This document shows positions 3,460 through 20,909 of a stretch of DNA of 64,000 nucleotides, piece after piece. The stretch lies in the NCBI GenBank assembly GCA_035632115.1, contig DASQHL010000144.1:1833-65832 (forward strand), given 5' to 3'. The notes under the pieces were generated by a model. It searched no databases. It was not told where the DNA came from and saw nothing but the letters and a program-made list of their open reading frames with translations. The translations under genes and the position numbers were made by a program. Each line of letters begins with the position of its first letter. The first letter of the stretch is position 1. The DNA comes from Dehalococcoidia bacterium. GTDB lineage: Bacteria > Chloroflexota > Dehalococcoidia > DSTF01 > JACRBR01.

Positions 3460-3764
3460 GGTTCGGGTACCTCCAACTATGCCGCCGGGCCTGCCCGCCT
3501 TGAGGCTTCGCTGCTGGTCCCCGTCGCTCGTCCCCGGGCCGGGGTATAGAGCGATCGAGGCCGGCGGAGGGTTCCTACCGGTTCCTGCTTGTTCAGTTCA
3601 TCGTTCGTTCAGGTCCGCCCCGAAGGGCTCGCGGGGGTATGATTTAGGAAAGTGTATCTCCGGGTCCCGCGACCGGTCAAGCGTTTTTCGGAGAATCTAC
3701 TGAATTGCTATAGCGCGTGGACTGTTCCTGGTCCATCCATACGGCCACGTGGCGGTCGCCACTG

Positions 3765-4655: not shown

Positions 4656-6335
4656 TTGAGTACGGATTCACAATCGCGCCGGATCCTGGTCGCCGTGGCG
4701 TGGCCTTACGCCAACGGCTCGCTGCACCTCGGCCACATCGCCGGGGCGTACCTGCCCGCGGATATCTTCGCCCGCTACCACCGGGTTATCGGTAACGAGG
4801 TGCTGATGGTGTCCGGGAGCGACCAGCACGGCACGCCGATCACGGTGCGCGCGGACAACGAGGGGCGTTCGCCCCAGGCGGTGGTCGACGAGTTTCACCC
4901 GGAGTTCCTGCGCTACTGGCAGGAGCTCGGCATCTCCTTCGACCTGTTCACGACGACCGGGACGGAGAACCACGCGCAGGTCACGCACGACGTGTTCCTG
5001 CGCCTGATGGAGCACGGCTACATCTACAAGGGGACCACGTCGCAGTTCTACGATCCGCAGGCGGGGCGCTTCCTGCCGGACCGCTACGTCGAGGGCACGT
5101 GCCCCTACTGCGGCTACGACAAGGCCCGCGGGGATCAGTGCGACAACTGCGGGCGCACGCTGGATCCCGAGCAGCTGATCGACCCGCGCAGCCGGATGAG
5201 CGGCGCCACGCCGGAGGCCCGCGACACAGAGCACTACTTCCTGAGGCTCAGCGCGTTCCAGGAGCCGCTGCTCGCGTGGTTGCGCAGCCGCCAGGGCTGG
5301 CGCAAGCACGTGCTGAACTTCAGCATCGGCTTCGTGGAAGAGGGGCTGCACGACCGCGCGATCACGCGCGACCTCGAGTGGGGGGTGTCGCTGCCGGTCG
5401 AAGACCTTGGCCCGGGCAAGCGCATCTACGTGTGGTTCGAGGCGGTGATCGGCTACCTCAGCGCCTCGAAAGAGTGGGCGCAGCTGCGCGGGGATCCGGA
5501 GGCGTGGCGCCGCTGGTGGGAGGACCCGGAGGCGCGCAGCTACTACTTCATCGGGAAAGACAACATCCCTTTCCACACGATCATCTGGCCGGCGATCCTC
5601 ATGGGCTATCGCGGCCTCAACCTGCCGACAGATGTGCCGGCGAACCAGTACGTGACGTTCAAGGGCGCCAAGGCATCGAAGAGCGAGCAGGTCGGCGAGC
5701 CGGTGCTGAGTTACCTGGAGCGGTACCAGCCGGACGCCATCCGGTACTGCCTCGCCGCCAACCTGCCGGAGAACTCCGACACGGATCTCACCGAGGCGGA
5801 GCTGGTCCGCCGCAACAACGACGAGCTGGTAGCGACGTGGGGCAACCTGGTGAACCGCGTGCTCCAGATGACGCACCGCACGTTCGAGGGGCGGGTGCCG
5901 AAGCCCGGCGTGCTGGAGCCGCGCGACCGCCGCCTGCTCGACGGGGGCGCTCTGATGCTTCGGGCCGTGGCATCGGACCTGGAGGCGGTGCGGCTGAAGG
6001 CGGCGCTGCAGGCGGCGATGTCGCACGCGCAGGCGGCTAACGTGTACCTGAACGAGACGGAGCCGTGGAAGACGGCGAAGGTCGACCGCGATCGCACGGC
6101 CACGTCCCTCTACACGGCGCTCTGTGCTATAAACGCGCTGAAGGTGGCGCTCTACCCGTTCCTGCCGTTCTCCAGCCAGCGCATCCACGAGTTTCTGGGG
6201 CTGGCGGGCGATGTAGGTGCGGGCGGATGGGAAGCGCCCGGGCTGGAGCCGGGCACGCTCCTGCAGCAGCCGGAACCCCTGTTCAGGAAGATCGAGCAGC
6301 CGGCTGTCGAAGGGGAGGCGCGGCTCACAGCCTGA
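4656..6335 (+). CDS. metG: Methionyl-tRNA synthetase
   Basis: WPYANGSLHLGHIAGAYLPADIFARYHR is the class I HIGH region. A zinc knuckle CPYCGYDKARGDQCDNCG is present. TTG start. Confidence 0.9.
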   Translation: MSTDSQSRRILVAVAWPYANGSLHLGHIAGAYLPADIFARYHRVIGNEVLMVSGSDQHGTPITVRADNEGRSPQAVVDEFHPEFLRYWQELGISFDLFTTTGTENHAQVTHDVFLRLMEHGYIYKGTTSQFYDPQAGRFLPDRYVEGTCPYCGYDKARGDQCDNCGRTLDPEQLIDPRSRMSGATPEARDTEHYFLRLSAFQEPLLAWLRSRQGWRKHVLNFSIGFVEEGLHDRAITRDLEWGVSLPVEDLGPGKRIYVWFEAVIGYLSASKEWAQLRGDPEAWRRWWEDPEARSYYFIGKDNIPFHTIIWPAILMGYRGLNLPTDVPANQYVTFKGAKASKSEQVGEPVLSYLERYQPDAIRYCLAANLPENSDTDLTEAELVRRNNDELVATWGNLVNRVLQMTHRTFEGRVPKPGVLEPRDRRLLDGGALMLRAVASDLEAVRLKAALQAAMSHAQAANVYLNETEPWKTAKVDRDRTATSLYTALCAINALKVALYPFLPFSSQRIHEFLGLAGDVGAGGWEAPGLEPGTLLQQPEPLFRKIEQPAVEGEARLTA

Positions 6336-11738: not shown

Positions 11739-12893
11739 CTACTGGCACTGGCCGGGCTCGCAGTTGACCGGCCCGGGCAGGTAATCGAGCGGGTTCTCGC
11801 GCACGCCGTTGTCGATCACCTCGAAGTGCAGGTGCCGTCCTGTCGAGTAGCCGGTGGAGCCGATGATGCCGAGGGTGGCGCCCTGCGCGACGTGCTGGCC
11901 CTGCGTCACGGCGATTGAGCTGAGGTGCCCGTACAGGGTCTGGATGCCGCCAGGGCTCATCACGACGACGTAGAGGCCGTAGGAGCAGCAGGCGTTGCCG
12001 CCGGCGAAGATCACGGTGCCGTCCGTCGCCGCGGCGATCGGCGCGCCGGCGAGGTTGTAGCCGTCGATATCGATGCCGAGCGGGTGCCACGGGCAGTAGC
12101 AGCTGGAGATGGGGCCGCGCACCGGCCAGATCAGCCCCTTGCCGGAGCGAGGGCCGTGGGCGGCGGGGGGCGGCGCCGTGACGCTACCGCCGCCTGATCC
12201 GGGCGTCGGCGCGGCGGAGGGAGCCGGCGCGGAGACCGGGGCGGCCGCGGGGGCCGGGATGACGGCGCCCGGGACGTAGATCAACTCCGTCTCGGTGATG
12301 TTGTCCGGGCGGGTGATGTGGTTCGCTGCGAAGCCGGTGATCGCCGAGATATCGACGCTGTACTGGCTGGCGATGTCGCTGAGCGTCTCGCCGTACTTCA
12401 CCTCGTGCAGGATGCCGTCGCCCGCCGGGATCAGCAGGGACTGTCCCAGCACGAGGAAGTTGGCGTCCTGGATCTCCGCGTTGTTGGCGACGATGTACTC
12501 CGGGTGGATGCCGAACTGCGCCGCGATGGACGAGATCGTGTCGCCGGCGCGCACGGTGTAGACCTGGTACGGCGGCAGGTCGGGCGGCGGCGCGACGGAG
12601 GCGGCGCGGACGACGGCGTCTTGCGAGGGCGTCGGCATGGGCGTGGGCGTGGCGGCGAGCGCTTGGAGCTGCTGCGCGACCTGCTGCTGCTCCGGCGGCG
12701 CCGGCTCTACCACGCGCAGTGTCTTGTTGATGGCGAGCGGCCGCAGGACAGTCTCGTCCACCACCGGCACGCTGGAACTGACGCCGGGCAGCGAGAGCCC
12801 GGTGACCGGCGCGGCGAACGCGGGCGTGTGCGATCGCAGGGCGCCACCCGTGACGCCGGCGTAGGCGACCGCGAGAGATACTGCGATCAGCAC
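11739..12893 (-). CDS. LysM-domain M23 peptidase (cell-wall endopeptidase)
   Basis: Two LysM repeats (YTVRAGDTISSIAAQFG and HEVKYGETLSDIASQYS) are followed by the M23 core HPLGIDIDG...GSTGYSTGRHLHFEV. Signal-anchor N-terminus. GTG start. Confidence 0.8.
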   Translation of the reverse strand: MLIAVSLAVAYAGVTGGALRSHTPAFAAPVTGLSLPGVSSSVPVVDETVLRPLAINKTLRVVEPAPPEQQQVAQQLQALAATPTPMPTPSQDAVVRAASVAPPPDLPPYQVYTVRAGDTISSIAAQFGIHPEYIVANNAEIQDANFLVLGQSLLIPAGDGILHEVKYGETLSDIASQYSVDISAITGFAANHITRPDNITETELIYVPGAVIPAPAAAPVSAPAPSAAPTPGSGGGSVTAPPPAAHGPRSGKGLIWPVRGPISSCYCPWHPLGIDIDGYNLAGAPIAAATDGTVIFAGGNACCSYGLYVVVMSPGGIQTLYGHLSSIAVTQGQHVAQGATLGIIGSTGYSTGRHLHFEVIDNGVRENPLDYLPGPVNCEPGQCQ

Positions 12894-13261
12894 CAGGCCG
12901 TGGGTGATTGGCCTGTGCTTGCTGCGCGCGGGGTGGCGCGCGGCGGGACCCGGCGTCCGGTGCCTGATGAAACGCGCTCGCCTGTCCTGGAACGAGCGCG
13001 GGCTGAGCGTGCCCCTGATGCTCTTCGCCTCCTGCGTGAGATTTGCGTGCCGTCCATCGGTGTGTGCGATGGCGGCTGCGCGCCCCGCTCCCCCTGCGCT
13101 GGCGGCGGCGCACCGGGGGTTATTCTACCCGTGATGATCGGCGCGCGAACGCGGCCCCCGGTGAGAATTCGGCAACATTGGACATGTTGGCGGGCGGGCG
13201 CGTAGCGGCTGCGCCGCCGTGCGCCCGAACGGGGCGCGTGTCTGCGCGAAGCCGCGGCCAG

Positions 13262-13320
13262 GTGATGAGATCGGGGCGGTCCGAGGCGTGGCTCAGCCCG
13301 GTAGAGCACCTGACTGGGGG
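13262..13320 (+). repeat. Left direct repeat: 59 bp comprising 17 bp of upstream flank plus the 5' 39 nt of tRNA-Pro (through the anticodon GGG)
   Basis: GTGATGAGATCGGGGCGGTCCGAGGCGTGGCTCAGCCCGGTAGAGCACCTGACTGGGGG matches 15357-15415 with 3 mismatches. The partial tRNA has no 3' half. Confidence 0.65.
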
Positions 13321-13555
13321 CTAACTCTGCGCTAACGCTGTGTTCTCGTATCTGCGATCCGAAGCTAAGATCAAGAAATTATCTACCGTTCGCGCGATTT
13401 TCGAGTAGCACCTGACGGGCCGCTCCGCCTTCAAACTGTTCTAGCCCCCTGAACTTACCGCGACGCCCGGACGCGACCGCCGTTGACGCATCGGGGCGTT
13501 AGGCTCTACAACAAGCAACGTGCGAGGTCTCTGACGCGAAGAGGGAGCTGCCAAG

Positions 13556-14065
13556 ATGCCCACGACTGCGGAACCCCCTGATCGGGTCGCGCTATTGCTC
13601 CGGTGTCTCGGCATAGATCCGAGCTCGTTCTACTCGTTTGTCGAATGGGCGTTAGACGAGCAGCTCGTTTCCGCGTTGGCACAAGACGCCGTCGCGCCTC
13701 GCGAACTGTTAGCCAAGCAGGACGGCCTCAGACAGTTTCGCGACATCCTTCGTGAACACACGAAGCGCGATTGGTCTGACAGCGATTTGAAGACCCTGTT
13801 CAGCGCCGTGAGATCCCGATACGAGAAGCACTACCGCGATCCCGTGACGTACGGCGAATACTTGAAGCTACTCTGGTCTAAGCCTCACCGCTGCGCCCAG
13901 TGCGAAGCAGAACCGCCGGGCGTGGTGCTCCACATTGATCATGTCGTGCCCGCGTCGCTCGGAGGCCCATCCAAAGCGCATAACCTCCAGTTCCTTTGTG
14001 CCAAGTGCAACCTCAAGAAGTCAAACAAGCTAGAAGGGGGACAGGCATGGCTCAACTTACAGTGA
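13556..14065 (+). CDS. HNH endonuclease
   Basis: RBS GAGGGAG 8 nt upstream of the ATG. C-terminal CAQCEAE...HIDHVVPASLGG...NLQFLCAKCNLKKSNK is the C-x2-C / H-x-D-H / N / C-x2-C His-Me finger. The N-terminal ~100 aa are unassigned. Confidence 0.75.
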   Translation: MPTTAEPPDRVALLLRCLGIDPSSFYSFVEWALDEQLVSALAQDAVAPRELLAKQDGLRQFRDILREHTKRDWSDSDLKTLFSAVRSRYEKHYRDPVTYGEYLKLLWSKPHRCAQCEAEPPGVVLHIDHVVPASLGGPSKAHNLQFLCAKCNLKKSNKLEGGQAWLNLQ

Positions 14066-15109
14066 CCGCCCACGTACTGAAACAGAAGGGGTTCGATCTG
14101 TACCTGTTCCCCATGAACTCCGAGCGGCTCAAGCAGATATGCTACGTCACGCCTCAGAGCAAAGACAACCCCGATGAAATTCAGCGAATCCTCGATCCGA
14201 AGCGCGCAAAGGAGATTGGCGAGTACATCAAGGATCACACGTCAATTCTCCCCAACGCGCTTGTGGTTAGCCTCACGGACGACGTTGTTGTTAGGGAGTC
14301 GGGTCGTGAAGGAGAGGTAGCAATAGAGTTCCCTGACCACGCCGGCAAGTTCGCGTATGTGCTCGACGGTCAGCACAGGCTCGCGGGCTTTGAGTACAGC
14401 GACGGGGTGGAGTTTCGATTTGCCCGTCGTCGCGCTATACAAGGCGGACGAGCACTTACGCGGCAAGGTGTTTGCCGATATCAACAGCAAGCAAGTCAAA
14501 GTCTCGGACGTTCATCTTCTTTCTCTCTACTACAAGATCAAAGAACTTCCGTCCGACTCCGCCGCAACGATGGACGTGATCCAGCGATTGGCGACTGACG
14601 CCGACTCTCCGCTCGCAGGCAAGATCAAGACGAGCGATGACGACAAGGGAGCCTGGGTGACAAACAAGCACATGAAGTTGTGCGTGGGGCCTCACACGGA
14701 AAGCGGCGGCATCCTGTATGGTCTCAATTCCCCTGCGGCTCAAGCGCAAGTCATGAAGGAATACCTGAAGGGCATTCAGCGTATGTGGCCCGAGGCCTGG
14801 GGTGACAACAAGAATTACATGCTCACGCGACCGATGGGCATGGAACTTATGCTGAGTGTGTTCGCCGCCGTGTCGCACCGATGCGATCTCAATCTCGGCC
14901 GCCAGTACACCGCGGAGAACTTCGAGAAGTCACTCGCGCCACTCAAGGACTGCGAGATCGAGATTCCGGGAGGCGGGAAACTCACCCTCACTTGGCAGCG
15001 AGGCCCATTCGGCACTCTGACTGGAAGGGCGGGGCGCAAGTTGGTTCAGAGGCAACTCAATGACCGGCTCCGCGCCGCCGACGAAAACAGCGCGTCTCAT
15101 GGCACGTAA
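14047..15109 (+). CDS. DGQHR-domain (DndB/ParB-like) protein, interrupted by a +1 frameshift near 14405
   Basis: Start MAQLTVTAH with AGGGGGA RBS, overlapping the HNH stop by 19 nt. FAYVLDGQHRLAGFEYSDGVEF reads to about 14405, then DLPVVALYKADEHLRGKVFADINSKQVKV... continues in the +1 frame to 15109. Total about 354 aa, matching DndB-family length. The junction lies next to a GGGG run. Confidence 0.7.
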
Positions 15110-15136
15110 TCGCCGGTCGCTCGCCGCCAGGCAGAA

Positions 15137-15168
15137 AGGTCAGTGATCCTCTTCGACTCCACTGACCT
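15137..15168 (+). terminator. Hairpin (9-bp perfect stem AGGTCAGTG/CACTGACCT, 14-nt loop) 28 nt after the DGQHR stop
   Basis: Inverted repeat read directly from the sequence. No T-tract, which may be normal in a high-GC genome. Confidence 0.3.
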
Positions 15169-15356
15169 TCGGTCATCCAGCTTGGAAACCAACACCCGGG
15201 CGTAAAGAGGGTGTCCATAAAATCGCCGGGCGATCTTACAGACGCCTCCCTCGCCCCGCGGCTGTGTCCGGCATTCGCAACATGTGCGCGACCGGAGTGC
15301 GGCAGCGTGGACACGCCGAGACCGTGGACGGGCGTCTGGGCGGGGTGCGTTCGGTC

Positions 15357-15415
15357 GTGATAAGATCGGGGCGGTTCGGGGCGTGGCTCAGCCCGGTAGA
15401 GCACCTGACTGGGGG
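15357..15415 (+). repeat. Right direct repeat (overlaps the promoter-proximal flank and 5' half of the intact tRNA-Pro)
   Basis: GTGATAAGATCGGGGCGGTTCGGGGCGTGGCTCAGCCCGGTAGAGCACCTGACTGGGGG. Confidence 0.65.
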
Positions 15416-15453
15416 TCAGGAGGTCGCTGGTTCGAATCCAGTCGCCCCGACCA
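15377..15453 (+). tRNA. tRNA-Pro (anticodon GGG)
   Basis: CGGGGCGTGGCTCAGCCCGGTAGAGCACCTGACTGGGGGTCAGGAGGTCGCTGGTTCGAATCCAGTCGCCCCGACCA has a 7-bp acceptor stem, anticodon loop CTGGGGG, a T-loop TTCGAAT and an encoded CCA. Confidence 0.9.
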
Positions 15454-15925
15454 TTTTCCACACACCATCTTCGCCGCACGGTGCTGCGCGCTTCCGCGCT
15501 TGACGCCGATCGTGCGTGGGCGCGGCTGATCGCGTTGTCGTCACAGGGCGATGACGCGATGGTGCGCACGGCTTCCGCGCGCGGCGCACGGGCATCGTCC
15601 CCGGGCACGCACGGCCGCGCGCAGGTTCGCGCGATTTGAGTATCTCGTCACAAGCGCGAAGATCGTGCCTCGTTGCCCTTGCCCCCCCAACATCGGACGT
15701 CTGATATACTCGGAGCACGGCCGAATCCGCGAAAGCGGAGCGGGGGAACCAACTTTCGGGGTGAATCTCGCAACGTGCGAGTAGGTCAGCTTCTCAGACC
15801 GAACCCGTCAGCTAACCTCGCAGGCACATGAGAGGGTACAGCACCTCGAGAGCAGGGTGTCTGGCCCTGTCCGTCTTGTTGCCATCGGCCAATGTGGACC
15901 CGGTGTTGCAGCGGAGGTGCCCCGC

Positions 15926-18121
15926 ATGAACCGCCTCGTCATCGTTTCCAATCGTCTTCCCGTAACCGCGCATGTCCAGGACGGCGAGCTGGTCGTCGAG
16001 CCATCGAACGGCGGCCTTGCCACCGGCCTGATCGGTCCGCACGAGCGCTGCGACGGGCTGTGGATCGGCTGGCCGGGCGACCTGCCGCAACTCTCCGGCC
16101 AGCAGCAGCAAGCGCTGACGGCGCGGCTTGACGAGCTGCGCGCCGTCGCCGTGCCGCTCAGCCACCGCGAGGTGAAGGCGTTCTACGAGGATGTTGCGAA
16201 CGGCATCCTCTGGCCCATCTTCCACGACCTCGTGCACCAGGTGCCATCGGATCTGCGCGGCTGGGACACGTTCCGTGCTGCGAACGCGCGGTTTGCGCGC
16301 GCCGCCGCCGCTCGTCGCGAGCCCGGCGACCTGATCTGGGTGCACGATTACCAGCTCGTGCTGGTGCCCGGCATGCTGCGCGAGCTGGCGCCTGACGCGC
16401 GCGTCGGCTTCTTCCTCCACATCCCGTTCCCACCGGAGGGGCTGCTGGGCGTGCTGCCCTGGCGGGAAGAGGTGCTGCGGGGGATGCTCGGCGCGGACCT
16501 GGTGGGCTTCCACACGTACGGGTACCTGCGGCACTTCTGCGAGGCGCTGCGCCGCGTGCTGGGCCTGGACGCGGAGCTCGATGGCGTGACGTACGCCGGA
16601 CGACGGGTGCGCTTCGGCGTGTTCCCGATGGGGGTCGACGCGCAGGCGTGGTCCGCGCGGGGCGACGATCCGGCGGTGCGCGACGAAGCGGCGGCGATCC
16701 GGGCGGACGGTGGCGGCACGAAGCTGCTCGTCGGGATCGATCGGCTGGACTACACGAAGGGGCTGCCGCGGCGGCTGCTGGCGGTGGACCGCGTGCTGAA
16801 GAGCGCGCCGGAGCTGCGCGGCGACCTGCGCCTGATCCAGGTGACGGTGCCGTCGCGGGAGAAGGTGGAAGCGTACGCCGGCCTGCGCCGGCGCATCGAC
16901 GAGATGGTGGGCCGGATCAACAGCCGCTACGCCACGCCGACATCGGCGCCGATCCACCGGATGCACACGTCGCTGTCGCCGGAGCGGATCGCGGCGCTGT
17001 ACCGCGCCGCCGACGTGATGCTGGTGACGCCGCTGCGCGACGGGATGAATCTCGTGGCGAAGGAGTTCGTCGCGACGCGCACGGACGAGGACGGCGTGCT
17101 GGTGCTGAGCAAGTCCGCGGGCGCGGCGGCGGAGCTGGGGCAGGCGCTGCTCGTCAACCCGTACGATATCGACGAAGTGGCAGCCGCCGTGCGGACGGCG
17201 CTGGCGATGCCGCGCGAGGAGCGCCGCGAGCGGATGCGCGCGATGCGGCGGCGTGTCGCGTCCCACGACGTCCACCGCTGGGCGGAGACCTTCATGGATG
17301 AGCTGCGGCGCGACCCACCGGCGGCACCGGCCGTCGTCACCCGGGAGCCGTCGGATGACCTGACGCGCTTCGTCGCGCGCGTCCGCGAGCGGCGCGAGAT
17401 GGCGCTAATCCTCGATTACGACGGCACGCTCATGCCGTTCGCGCCGACGCCCGACGCGGCGCCTCCGGATGCGGAGTTGATCGAGCTGCTGCGGCGGCTG
17501 GCTGATCGGCCGGGCATCCGGGTGCACGTGGTCAGTGGCCGCCCGCGAGAGACGCTCGCTGAGTGGCTGGGCGCGCTGCCGATCGGGCTGCACGCGGAGC
17601 ATGGGTTCGCGTCGCGGATGCGGCCGGAGGCGGCGTGGATCGAGCATGGCGGCCCGGCGACGGACTGGAAGCGCCGGGTGCAGCCGATCCTGAAGCATTT
17701 CGCCGGGACGACGCCGGGCGCGTTCGTCGAAGAGAAGCGCGTGTCGCTCGCGTGGCACTACCGCGCAGCCGCGGCCGACACGCGCGACCGGGACTTCGTG
17801 GCATCGCAGGCGCGCGAGCTGCGGCTGGTACTGGAGGAGACGCTGGCGAGCCTGCCGGTGGAGATCCTCCCGGGCAACATGGTGCTGGAGGTGCGGGCGC
17901 GCGGCGTCAGCAAGGCGAACGTTGTGCCGCTGATCCTGGCGCAGGGCGACGGACGCGAGGCCGTGCTGGCGATGGGCGACGACCGCACGGACGAGGACCT
18001 GTTCGCGGCGGTGCCGGAGGGCAGCCTCACCGTGCACGTCGGCGAGGGCGACACGCGCGCGCTCTACCGCGTGCCGGACGTGGCCAGCGCGCGCCAGTTG
18101 CTGGCGACGCTCATCGACTGA
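15926..18121 (+). CDS. otsA: Bifunctional trehalose-6-phosphate synthase (GT20, OtsA) / trehalose-6-phosphate phosphatase (HAD, OtsB) fusion
   Basis: The N-terminal ~470 aa carry GT20 motifs (LIWVHDYQL, the FFLHIPFP region). The C-terminal ~270 aa begin ILDYDGTLMPF, the HAD DxD motif. RBS GGAGGTG. Confidence 0.85.
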   Translation: MNRLVIVSNRLPVTAHVQDGELVVEPSNGGLATGLIGPHERCDGLWIGWPGDLPQLSGQQQQALTARLDELRAVAVPLSHREVKAFYEDVANGILWPIFHDLVHQVPSDLRGWDTFRAANARFARAAAARREPGDLIWVHDYQLVLVPGMLRELAPDARVGFFLHIPFPPEGLLGVLPWREEVLRGMLGADLVGFHTYGYLRHFCEALRRVLGLDAELDGVTYAGRRVRFGVFPMGVDAQAWSARGDDPAVRDEAAAIRADGGGTKLLVGIDRLDYTKGLPRRLLAVDRVLKSAPELRGDLRLIQVTVPSREKVEAYAGLRRRIDEMVGRINSRYATPTSAPIHRMHTSLSPERIAALYRAADVMLVTPLRDGMNLVAKEFVATRTDEDGVLVLSKSAGAAAELGQALLVNPYDIDEVAAAVRTALAMPREERRERMRAMRRRVASHDVHRWAETFMDELRRDPPAAPAVVTREPSDDLTRFVARVRERREMALILDYDGTLMPFAPTPDAAPPDAELIELLRRLADRPGIRVHVVSGRPRETLAEWLGALPIGLHAEHGFASRMRPEAAWIEHGGPATDWKRRVQPILKHFAGTTPGAFVEEKRVSLAWHYRAAAADTRDRDFVASQARELRLVLEETLASLPVEILPGNMVLEVRARGVSKANVVPLILAQGDGREAVLAMGDDRTDEDLFAAVPEGSLTVHVGEGDTRALYRVPDVASARQLLATLID

Positions 18122-18137: not shown

Positions 18138-20909
18138 TCACGCGGCGGCTTGCTCCTCCGGTGGGGTGAGGTCGCCGGGAAGCGCGCCGCGTTGCCAGAG
18201 GCGCAAGAACGCCTGCACCACGCGCGGGTTGAACTGCGTGCCGGACCATGCTTCCACTTCACGCGCGGCCGCCGACGCGGGCCGGCCGATGCGGTAGGGC
18301 CGGTCGTTCGTCATTGCGTCGAAGCAGTCGGCGACGGCAACGATGGTCGCGGCCTCCGGGATCTCTTCTCCGGCGAGGCCGTGGGGATAGCCACTGCCGT
18401 CCCAACGTTCGTGGTGCGCTTCGGCCACCGCCGCCGCCAGGTCGAATCCGGGCCGGCCGCGCAGGAACTCCGCGCCCCAGACGGTGTGCTGCTGCATGAT
18501 CGACCACTCATCGGTATCGAGGCGCTGGGCGCTGGAGAGCAGCGCCTCCGGCACGCGGATCTTGCCGATATCGTGCAGCACCGCCGCGAGGGCCAGCTCG
18601 CCGGCGGCGCGCGCGGTGTAGCCCAGCTCCAGGGCGATGGCCTCGCTGATCGTGCGGACGCGTTGCAGGTGGCGTCCGGTCGTGGCGTCGTGGGCCTCGG
18701 CGGCGGCCGCCAGCATCAGCACGGTCTCGGCCTGCGCGCGTTCCAGGCGTGCGGAGGTAGCGGCCATGCGGACGATCGCCGTCACCTGCGTGGCAACGGC
18801 GTTGAGGAACTGCGCGTCGCGGGCGCTGAAGGCATGGGTCCGGCCGGCGTGGACCGAGAGGACGCCCACCATCTCGTCGTGCCAGTACATCGGCGCGAGG
18901 ACGGCGGAGTGCACGCCCGTCGCCGCCGCGAGCCGGCGCTCGAGCGGCGTCAGTCGCTCGTCGTGCTGGACGTCGTCGAGGATGATCGGCGCGCGCGTCG
19001 CGCGGACAATGGGACCGAGGCCGGGATGTTCGGGCAGGATGCGGCGCTCCTTGAGCCACTCGGCGCCGACCTCCAACGCCTCAGGCGTCACCGGCGCGCC
19101 GTGCGTGCCTGAGGCGGCGTTGTTGGACGTGCCGAGGACGTCCGCATCGAACACCTCGAAGTTCACCAGCTCATAGCCGGCGCCGATAGAAAGTTGGTGC
19201 GCGACGAGTCGTAGCTTGTCGCCCGGCGTCCCCGCCAATGTCAACAGCGGGACGATCTCGCCCACCATCTGCGCCTCGCGGTCGTCTCCGGCGGGGCGTG
19301 GCGATGCCGGACCCGCGGTGCGGCGGCGCTGTTCGCGGCGCCGCTGGTACATGGCGCTGTCCGCCAGCTTGATCAGGTCTTCCACGCCGACAGCCTCGGC
19401 GGGGTACACCGCTATCCCCATGCTGACGACGACTGGTACCGTGAGATTGACGCTCCCGATCTGCACGGATGTGCCCTCGAGTTCCCGCGTCACGCTCTCG
19501 CGATACCGCTCGGCGGCGGGACGGCCGGCGCCGGGAAGCACTGCGATGAACTCGTCGCCGCCGTAGCGGCCGATGATCGCGCCGTCGCGGGCCATCGCGC
19601 CGGCGACGACGGCGAGGGCGCGGTCGCCGACCTGGTGGCCGTAGGTGTCGTTGGTGGCCTTCATACCATCGATGTCGACCATGGCCACCGCGAACGGGTG
19701 GCCTGGCTCGCGCTCGATGAGATCGCGCACGACGTCGGTGATGACGGCGTGGTTGAGCGTGCCGGTGAGGGCGTCGCGGTCGGCGCGGTCGCGCAGGGCG
19801 GCTTCGGCGCGCACCCGTTCGCTGATGTCGCGGAAGCTCCAGACGCGCCCATTGACGCGGCCATCCATGATGAGCGGGCGTGAGTAGCTTTCGATCGTGC
19901 GGCCGTCATTGAAACGGAGGGTCTCGGAGTGCTCCTCTGCGCTCAGGAACATCTCGCTCAACCGCTTCAGGAACCCGTCCGCGTCGTCGATCTGGCGGCC
20001 GATCAGCTCCCGCAGGCGGGGCCGGTCGCGGCTGTTCAGCACGTCGTCGGGCACGCCCCAGATCTGGCGGAACAGGGCGTTGGTGTGGACCTGCGAGTTC
20101 GCCGTCAACGCCAGAAGGCCGTCGGTGGTGGATTCAATCGTCTTGCGGAGGATCTCCTCGTTCGCCAGCAATGCGTCGTTCGCCTGGGCGAGGTCGCGGG
20201 TGCGTTCGGACACACGCTCCTCGAGTTCCCTGTTCGCCCGCTGCAGGCCCACGCGCGCTTCCAGCAGCGCGTCCTGGGACCGGACGGCCGAGTCGCGCTC
20301 CGAGCGGAGCTGGCGGCCGACCCAGTTGGTCCAGAGGTAGATGCTGTAGAAGACGCCCGCGCCGCCCAGCGCCGTGGTCAGGACGAAGCGGCCGTCCCGG
20401 TAGCTGAAGAGCCCGACACGGGGGTAGGTGTAGTACGGCACGACCCCTGTCGCCTCGAGGACGAGGAGCGCGAGAAAGGCAGCCGCGGCGCCGGTCGTGT
20501 AGATCAGCCCGCGCTTCAGATCGAGGAAGGTGTTGGTGAAGATGAGACCGAAGACGTAGGCGAACGCGCCGAGCCAGGCGACGCCGCCAAGGAAGTAGAC
20601 CATCGTGGTGTGAAAGATGATCTCCGCGGCGAGCATGACGTAGTGCGCGCGCTCGATCTGGCGCGCGGACGGGAGCAGCGCGACGACGCGCAGGTAGACG
20701 ACGAAGAACAGCGCCTCGCAGCAGAGGACGGCGAGGAACGGCGTGGGCATCGGCAGACCGATGACCAGCAGGAGCAGCCAGAGGGCGATGAAGAGGCCGA
20801 TGACGACGAGGCGTGCGAGCGCCTGCGGCGTTTGCTCGCGTCGCCGTGCTTGAAGGCGGTCGGATGGGCGCGCGCCTTCACGGGCACGTGCGACAGCAGT
20901 GCTCAGCAT
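18138..20909 (-). CDS. Membrane-anchored PAS-GGDEF-GAF-HD-GYP signalling protein (c-di-GMP synthesis and hydrolysis domains)
   Basis: About 5 N-terminal TM helices are followed by a PAS domain. GGDEF carries RYGGDEF, with a GAF domain after it. HD-GYP carries HDIGK...HHERWDGSGYP. Confidence 0.85.
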   Translation of the reverse strand: MLSTAVARAREGARPSDRLQARRREQTPQALARLVVIGLFIALWLLLLVIGLPMPTPFLAVLCCEALFFVVYLRVVALLPSARQIERAHYVMLAAEIIFHTTMVYFLGGVAWLGAFAYVFGLIFTNTFLDLKRGLIYTTGAAAAFLALLVLEATGVVPYYTYPRVGLFSYRDGRFVLTTALGGAGVFYSIYLWTNWVGRQLRSERDSAVRSQDALLEARVGLQRANRELEERVSERTRDLAQANDALLANEEILRKTIESTTDGLLALTANSQVHTNALFRQIWGVPDDVLNSRDRPRLRELIGRQIDDADGFLKRLSEMFLSAEEHSETLRFNDGRTIESYSRPLIMDGRVNGRVWSFRDISERVRAEAALRDRADRDALTGTLNHAVITDVVRDLIEREPGHPFAVAMVDIDGMKATNDTYGHQVGDRALAVVAGAMARDGAIIGRYGGDEFIAVLPGAGRPAAERYRESVTRELEGTSVQIGSVNLTVPVVVSMGIAVYPAEAVGVEDLIKLADSAMYQRRREQRRRTAGPASPRPAGDDREAQMVGEIVPLLTLAGTPGDKLRLVAHQLSIGAGYELVNFEVFDADVLGTSNNAASGTHGAPVTPEALEVGAEWLKERRILPEHPGLGPIVRATRAPIILDDVQHDERLTPLERRLAAATGVHSAVLAPMYWHDEMVGVLSVHAGRTHAFSARDAQFLNAVATQVTAIVRMAATSARLERAQAETVLMLAAAAEAHDATTGRHLQRVRTISEAIALELGYTARAAGELALAAVLHDIGKIRVPEALLSSAQRLDTDEWSIMQQHTVWGAEFLRGRPGFDLAAAVAEAHHERWDGSGYPHGLAGEEIPEAATIVAVADCFDAMTNDRPYRIGRPASAAAREVEAWSGTQFNPRVVQAFLRLWQRGALPGDLTPPEEQAAA

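Follow-up and report, generated by a model that had tools for sequence, protein, structure and literature searches.

Among the proteins with a DGQHR domain, DndB is a transcriptional repressor and ATPase, and DpdB serves a transglycosylase, a base-exchange enzyme, as its ATPase partner. The hallmark motifs of the domain are QR, DGQHR, and FxxxN, and it shares the motifs QR, DGQxR, and FxxxN with DUF262 (PMC4619093). In GmrSD and SspE, the ParB-like NTPase (DUF262) domain is reported to recognize modified DNA and, via its NTPase activity, to switch on the fused His-Me nuclease (PMC12065111). One passage of PMC4619093 also describes GmrS and GmrD as being encoded separately in some genomes. We analyzed a pair of overlapping genes, an HNH endonuclease gene followed by a DGQHR gene, which is located at positions 13556–15109 of a 64,000-nt stretch from a Dehalococcoidia bacterium (contig DASQHL010000144.1; the whole stretch is referred to as the window). 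An initial annotation had described these genes as a translationally coupled candidate two-gene defense module that seemed to match no described system and might be a split GmrSD-like module or a DndB-like sensor coupled to an effector nuclease. Literature searches likewise found no description of an HNH–DGQHR two-gene system. The present results indicate that the HNH–DGQHR pair is an autonomous and conserved two-gene unit, the genes of which retain a 19-nt overlap, co-evolve, and need no dnd, dpd, or ssp partner.

The HNH–DGQHR gene pair and its proteins

An HNH gene was found directly upstream of the DGQHR gene in 58 of 59 homologous loci, which bears out the proposal of a two-gene module. 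The HNH homologue was immediately upstream in all 17 close loci (genomes and Logan contigs) and was upstream in 41 of the 42 metagenome loci that had at least 500 nt of upstream sequence. In this second set the two genes abutted in 39 loci and were about 290 nt apart in two, and one degraded copy lacked the HNH gene. Intergenic stretches of about 290 nt without any overlap were seen in the near-identical metagenome contigs L048 (749–1042) and L049 (725–1018). In the window, the start codon ATG of the DGQHR gene at 14047 lies 19 nt inside the HNH gene, the stop codon of which is at 14063–14065, so that the overlap as read from the sequence is 14047–14065 on the + strand. The same 19-nt overlap was exact in all 15 loci checked, which supports the translational coupling suggested earlier. 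A Shine-Dalgarno-like GAAGGGGGA for the DGQHR gene was also read from the sequence within the HNH coding region (14033–14041, +), where it encodes a conserved LEGG, and purine-rich motifs occur at the equivalent position in other loci. The pairwise identities of the HNH proteins correlated with those of the DGQHR proteins (Mantel r 0.81), and this value was reached in none of 2000 permutations. No HNH–DGQHR fusion was present among the best 120 of 234 DGQHR matches or the best 150 HNH-profile matches in 1.84 billion representatives.

The initial annotation had noted the absence of modification and dnd, dpd, or ssp genes from the window and had allowed that homologues elsewhere might be embedded in complete dnd or dpd clusters. 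The 57 open reading frames (ORFs) of at least 100 aa in the window gave no match to Dnd, Dpd, Ssp, or methyltransferase models at E≤1e-8, and PADLOC assigned to them only three weak families (mad1 and two Csa3 models), none of which is a modification enzyme. In about 40 homologous neighborhoods, no recurrent third gene was found. When flanking ORFs were scanned (126 from 13 loci and 101 from about 19 more), the generic mad2, with 4 matches, was the only Pfam or PADLOC family seen in more than two loci, and Dnd and Dpd families were absent from the 25 most frequent families in each scan, a scope in which a partner present in at least three loci would be visible and a single occurrence possibly not.

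The HNH gene (13556–14065, +) is an intact ORF for a protein of 169 aa, which consists of an N-terminal helical domain of no assigned fold (aa 1–108) and a C-terminal zinc-finger HNH domain. Pfam assigned aa 113–160 to HNH (PF01844; 39.2 bits against a cutoff of 21.4) and HNH_5 (PF14279; 44.3 bits). The catalytic and zinc-binding core, CxxC...DH...N...CxxCN (aa 113–152; 13892–14011, +), contains the residues C113, C116, D128, H129, N143, C148, and N152, all of which are invariant across the alignment of HNH homologues. A PDB sequence search matched 4h9d, the HNH domain of IscB/Cas9, and McrA, whereas PHROGs returned generic matches to the HNH core only. The family with this N-terminal domain is small, since a profile search of the 1.84 billion representatives collected 26 clusters at E≤1e-30; all of them are about 160–260 aa long, and no fusion, whether to a DGQHR domain or to anything else, was seen among them. 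A protein 100% identical to the HNH protein is annotated in a Dehalococcoidia metagenome-assembled genome. Judging from these features, the HNH protein is an apparently active nuclease of the beta-beta-alpha-metal zinc-finger type with a family-specific helical N-terminal domain.

The DGQHR gene (14047–15109, +) is not a single ORF in the window. Frame 1 extends from 14047 to 14598, whereas the C-terminal two thirds of the protein are encoded in frame 2, which ends at 15109. The overlapping pair with an intact HNH gene stands as initially annotated, but the frameshift had been missed, and the end coordinate 15109, which is the true end of the DGQHR gene, belongs to the frame-2 fragment. Alignment with locus L001, which encodes the closest relative (91% identity to the DGQHR protein), located the cause in one extra T in the TTT run at 14413–14415; the sequence is GAG TTT CGA here and GAG TTC GAT in L001. 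The Logan assembly L042 of run SRR6788488 was 100% identical over 13291–15409 and included the extra T. Since this is an independent assembly of the same sample, the extra base comes from the reads and did not arise during assembly. Removal of one T gave 353 codons and a protein collinear with its full-length homologues, which number more than 230 and are 345–355 aa long. In comparison with L001, the dN/dS of the DGQHR gene was 0.049 for the whole gene and 0.035 for the part after the shift, at a dS of about 0.9, and the dN/dS of the HNH gene was 0.1. By these ratios both proteins are under strong purifying selection, and the low value past the shift indicates that the frameshift is young relative to the divergence of the window and L001 copies. 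In the window, a recent +1 frameshift thus cuts off the DGQHR protein after the DGQHR motif, and the module is probably inactive here, with its HNH gene still intact.

The shift site (14410–14419) reads GAG-UUU-CGA-U, a slippery UUU followed by CGA, and is similar in form to a +1 'hungry codon' slippage site. The host genes use UUU 19 times against 361 times for UUC, and CGA accounts for 2.4% of their Arg codons. Some +1 read-through that yields the full-length protein is conceivable, although inactivation is the simplest reading.

The profile searches recommended with the initial annotation gave scores above cutoff for both proteins. The corrected DGQHR protein matched TIGR03187 (DGQHR; 125.6 bits, cutoff 58.85) and the Pfam DndB family PF14072 (52.3 bits, cutoff 29.1), and the uncorrected frame-1 product still reached 45.5 bits for PF14072. 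The only other NCBIfam models listed were not reached at their equivalog level, namely DpdB (NF041060; 84.9 bits, cutoff 300) and DGQHR_dnd_1 (79.7 bits, cutoff 450), and there was no DndB equivalog match. In PADLOC, DpdB was the sole match (96.8 bits). The hallmark motifs Q46-R47, D107–R111 (DGQHR; 14365–14379, +), and F142...N146 (FxxxN) were invariant in 25 diverse homologues. The N-terminal half of the protein has a ParB/Srx-type NTP-binding fold and is followed by a helical C-terminal domain (AF2 pLDDT 79.6), so that the lack of a ParB-like fold, which would have spoken against the initial annotation, was not observed. A PDB sequence search with the DGQHR profile gave no match at E≤1. A phage origin of the pair was considered and is unsupported, because a scan of IMG/VR with the family profile found no viral relatives and PHROGs gave no match for the DGQHR protein beyond the generic HNH-core matches of its partner.

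A distant DGQHR protein with 32% identity and without an HNH partner is encoded in locus L018 (7235–10978), where the adjoining genes, judged by sequence motifs alone, resemble those of a GTP cyclohydrolase I (FolE), a CobO-like ATPase, and a duplicated QueD/PTPS. Such a gene content points to a 7-deazaguanine, DpdB-like context, which suggests that the DpdB lineage is a sister group of the DGQHR protein of the pair.

The pair was compared with known systems. DpdB and DndB have the same DGQHR domain family, a similar size, and the two-domain layout, and DpdB is the best named model. However, the scores fall well short of the equivalog cutoffs, none of the loci has a DpdA/TGT or DndCDE gene nearby, and the constant partner is an HNH nuclease. 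Judged by these profiles, the DGQHR protein is a sister of DpdB and DndB and belongs neither to DndB or DpdB nor to DUF262. As in GmrSD, BrxU, and SspE, a ParB/Srx-fold domain with QR, DGQxR, and FxxxN motifs is combined with a helical domain and a His-Me nuclease; no cognate methyltransferase is needed, and the genes are found on mobile DNA and in defense islands. Unlike these proteins, the pair has the activities on two polypeptides with the nuclease gene first. The ParB-like domain is of the DGQHR branch (PF14072/TIGR03187) instead of DUF262 (PF03235), and the nuclease is a CxxC...CxxC zinc-finger HNH of PF01844 with a novel N-terminal domain instead of DUF1524 (PF07510). Pfam searches of both proteins at E≤0.1 detected neither DUF262 nor DUF1524. 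By domain family, then, the pair is GmrSD-like in logic only, and neither half matches the corresponding GmrSD domain family. Septu resembles the pair as a two-gene system of an NTPase and an HNH nuclease, and PADLOC found the HNH core weakly similar to PtuB (best E 6.6e-6, 24 bits, core only). Septu membership was rejected, since the match is confined to the core, the N-terminal domain of the HNH protein is unrelated, and the neighboring gene encodes a ParB-fold DGQHR protein but not the ABC/AAA ATPase PtuA. The pair thus appears to be an unnamed combination on a known theme, in which a conflict system joins a ParB-fold NTPase to a His-Me nuclease.

The islet at tRNA-Pro(GGG) and homologous loci

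The two genes are the only content of an islet of 2036 nt (13321–15356), as judged from the ORF list and Pfam. The GC content of the islet is 0.584, whereas that of the flanks is 0.70–0.71, in agreement with the lower-GC islet described before, and the GC3 of its genes is 0.70–0.73 against about 0.9–0.95 for host genes. The borders, which had not been recognized, are formed by a 59-nt direct repeat derived from tRNA-Pro(GGG). The right copy (15357–15415, +) is made up of the 20 nt upstream of the functional tRNA-Pro gene and part of that gene, and the intact gene at 15377–15453 (+), detected by ARAGORN and by Rfam with 65.9 bits, is the insertion target. The left copy (13262–13320, +) is a decayed sequence of 20 nt of upstream region and the first 39 nt of the tRNA gene, in which ARAGORN called no tRNA. 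The copies are 95% identical, and one of the three mismatches of the left copy is an A at acceptor-stem position 3. The local alignment score of the repeat pair was 51.5, whereas the maximum in shuffles was 15.5. The repeat spans positions -20 to +39 of tRNA-Pro and its end falls in the anticodon loop, so that the 5′ half of the tRNA is duplicated, which is atypical for integrase-mediated islands. An island of the tyrosine-integrase type would fit the tRNA-derived repeats but was rejected, because the islet has no integrase and the 5′ rather than the 3′ part of the tRNA is duplicated. Within the overall explanation that we favor with moderate confidence, 13321–15356 is a horizontally acquired islet of 2.0 kb inserted at tRNA-Pro(GGG), and a 59-nt target duplication is what we infer for its repeats.

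The non-coding leader of 235 nt (13321–13555, +) contains no ORF, Rfam match, or sigma-70-like promoter, and the non-coding trailer of 247 nt (15110–15356, +) contains no credible ORF, Rfam match, or terminator. A scan of the islet for promoters and terminators found nothing exceeding shuffles, and Rfam detected no non-coding RNA in the islet and only the tRNA and an unrelated riboswitch in 12800–15900. A weaker third copy of part of the tRNA repeat, AGCACCTGAC..., is present in the leader at 13407–13424 (83% over 18 nt) and may be due to chance.

Upstream and downstream flanks were compared in 45 loci against shuffles, and repeats above all shuffles were detected in five, namely the window and four others. 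The repeats are 44 nt in L080 (54–97 and 2026–2069), where they run from the tRNA-Asn T-arm to 16 nt beyond the 3′ end of this tRNA, about 180 nt in L073 (about 3543–3724 and 5706–5881), about 44 nt in L005 (9268–9311 and 11250–11292), and 35–44 nt in L039 (9317–9360 and 11096–11139). The repeat-flanked islets are 1.74–2.04 kb long and contain the pair only, without an integrase or a transposase, and no conserved element ends were found among the five. 'Insertion with long target duplication' was described for type I–IV restriction systems (Furuta, Abe and Kobayashi 2010, PMC2853133). All five islets show an insert below 20 kb, a repeat longer than 30 bp, and no mobility gene inside, and they are similar to the reported units as small nuclease units of deviant GC with direct repeats of variable length that sometimes overlap tRNA genes. 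Unlike the reported restriction-modification units, the pair has no methyltransferase, the repeats are still visible in only these five of 45 loci, and the duplication is deduced from the repeats. Exact-protein look-ups aimed at empty sites or sister strains retrieved no contigs from outside the same sample. It is conceivable, though quite unlikely, that the pair is a self-mobilizing nuclease element, in which both proteins would make widely staggered breaks and insert the cassette of ~2 kb with target duplications of 35–180 nt, tRNA genes included, without an integrase or transposase. If true, self-mobilization would also explain how restriction systems undergo 'insertion with long target duplication', which has long gone unexplained.

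Homologous pairs occur in about 10 bacterial phyla, among them Chloroflexota, Acidobacteriota, Actinomycetota, Planctomycetota, Proteobacteria, Atribacterota, and TA06, as well as in one archaeon. The identity to the window copy is 55% for the archaeal copy and 56% for that of another Dehalococcoidia, and a metagenome scan found no relative above 72%. The GC content of the pair is 0.52–0.55 in hosts of 0.57–0.72 and 0.40 in a host of 0.36. The host range, the similarity of the archaeal copy, and the deviant GC together indicate frequent horizontal transfer of both genes together. The annotated neighborhoods all differ and include housekeeping operons, mobile elements, and defense islands. One of them has a Trp/Tyr-tRNA synthetase gene and a Schlafen-AlbA_2 gene, the archaeal one has an MmeI/Eco57I-type methylase, an SNF2-PLD helicase, IS elements, and an integrase, and others have SNF2 and DDE transposases or an integrative element with Prim-Pol, resolvase, and integrase. 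The defense-like or mobile neighbors include MmeI/Eco57I-type restriction-modification, SNF2-PLD helicase, Schlafen-AlbA_2, DrmMI, PD-T4-6, SLATT, and KAP NTPase genes, as well as three DNA methyltransferase families, integrases, and transposases. In L046 (8469–13995), the pair lies between the FAD-binding and Fer2/MoCo subunit genes of an operon of the CO-dehydrogenase/xanthine-dehydrogenase type, and the stop codon of the DGQHR gene abuts the start of the next gene. In the Planctomycetota locus L012, inverted repeats of 26–27 nt that contain GGGGTCAGA and are 88–96% complementary were observed around the pair (1919–1982, 2005–2030, and 3653–3678); they may be REP- or MITE-like elements.

About 10% of the copies are frameshifted. 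The DGQHR gene is affected in L017/L088, L084, L085, and L097, both genes in L091, and the HNH gene in L011. Some of these frameshifts may be assembly errors, and L011 is a candidate if its metagenome-assembled genome is long-read, as the contig naming suggests. In consensus assemblies, a frameshifted DGQHR gene with an intact HNH gene was seen in the window, L017/L088, L085, and L097, and the reverse pattern in L011.

The genes flanking the islet in the window are housekeeping genes, with a LysM/M23 peptidase gene on the left and tRNA-Pro, a c-di-AMP riboswitch, and an OtsA–OtsB fusion gene on the right. The riboswitch (RF00379; 15709–15841, +; 98.9 bits against a gathering score of 38) is directly 5′ of the gene for the trehalose-6-phosphate synthase/phosphatase fusion (Glyco_transf_20 and Trehalose_PPase; 15857–18121), a placement that suggests control of osmolyte synthesis by c-di-AMP. 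A gene for a large GGDEF-GAF-HD signaling protein of the HD-GYP type (18138–20909, -) adjoins the trehalose gene and is unrelated to the gene pair.

Proposed function and alternative explanations

The pair is probably a small defense or selfish nuclease module. On balance we prefer to regard it as a two-component nuclease conflict system, in which an NTP-switched DGQHR sensor and an HNH effector would be encoded in a horizontally acquired, translationally coupled operon. In analogy to DUF262 in GmrSD and SspE, the DGQHR protein would act as an NTP-dependent DNA-binding sensor or switch that binds the HNH protein, perhaps through the N-terminal domain of the latter, and licenses it to cut target DNA. 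The target would most likely be foreign DNA with a feature that the host lacks, in a type IV-like manner analogous but not homologous to GmrSD, BrxU, and SspE; alternatively, any DNA might be cut after an infection signal. Since no modification enzyme is linked to the pair, the most plausible mode appears to be either a type IV-like attack on modified invader DNA or cleavage triggered by infection. We infer a defense function from the architecture, the horizontal transfer, and the partial association with defense islands.

Several observations weigh against a sensor–effector defense system. The characterized DGQHR proteins, DndB and DpdB, are not nuclease activators, and the pair has no evident mechanism for discriminating self from non-self. 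Close to half of the contexts with annotation are ordinary housekeeping neighborhoods, the pair has been seen only in uncultured organisms, and it is absent from PADLOC as a defined system. Moreover, the window copy is broken, so that function in this organism cannot be inferred from it.

It is less probable, but deserves serious consideration, that the pair is a selfish mobile cassette, the nuclease of which promotes its own insertion or retention in a homing- or addiction-like manner with no defense benefit to the host. The pair-only islets of 1.7–2.0 kb with long variable repeats and no integrase or transposase inside are what such a cassette would produce, as are the insertion between subunit genes in L046, the composition that is foreign in every host, and the frequent decay. 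However, repeats were found at just five of the 45 testable loci, the element termini are not conserved, and the insertion sites have no common sequence, unlike homing targets. Strong purifying selection on both proteins also argues against this explanation. Furthermore, bona fide restriction systems show the same long target duplication (PMC2853133), and mobility therefore does not exclude defense.

By analogy with the DndB repressor, the pair might instead be a toxin–antitoxin or addiction pair, in which the HNH protein would be a DNase toxin and the DGQHR protein its antitoxin or repressor. The operon is mobile and consists of two overlapping genes, DndB is described as an ATP-modulated repressor (PMC10853773), and links between HEPN/ParB and abortive infection have been noted (PMC3632139). 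Nevertheless, the pattern of decay indicates that neither gene is apparently needed to survive the other, since the DGQHR gene is broken beside an intact HNH gene in the window, L017/L088, L085, and L097, and the reverse holds in L011. A highly conserved NTPase-fold protein of 350 aa would also be atypical as an antitoxin, and we give this explanation little weight.

Membership in the GmrSD/BrxU/SspE type IV family, in the form of a truly split enzyme whose GmrS-like and GmrD-like halves are encoded by two genes, would account for the common domain logic of a ParB-like NTPase and a His-Me nuclease, for the QR, DGQxR, and FxxxN motifs common to the DGQHR domain and DUF262, and for the precedent of separate GmrS and GmrD genes mentioned in PMC4619093. 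This is very unlikely, because the halves belong to PF14072/TIGR03187 and PF01844/PF14279, with no DUF262 or DUF1524 match, and because the gene order is reversed. That the pair is the remnant of a decayed dnd or dpd cluster, with only DndB/DpdB and an accessory nuclease left, is extremely improbable and largely refuted: although no named model fits better than DpdB in PADLOC and the DndB family in Pfam, the DGQHR gene of the window is a pseudogene, and the distant relative in L018 lies beside FolE- and QueD-like genes, the same two-gene unit occurs in about 60 loci without a recurrent dnd or dpd gene nearby, the window has no Dnd, Dpd, or Ssp match, and the DGQHR protein falls far short of the DpdB cutoff and has no DndB equivalog match.

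If the pair is a working defense system with a DGQHR sensor and an HNH effector, it would be a compact and previously unnamed family that rebuilds the logic of GmrSD from different parts in a split form. Nuclease licensing would then be a third role for the DGQHR branch of the ParB superfamily, beside the regulator DndB and the ATPase DpdB, and the split format makes the interface between sensor and effector directly testable. Whatever the function, the small islets whose target duplications are long and variable provide a clean natural system for the movement of nuclease genes without dedicated recombinases. For this genome, the locus represents a horizontally acquired cassette at tRNA-Pro that was probably inactivated recently.

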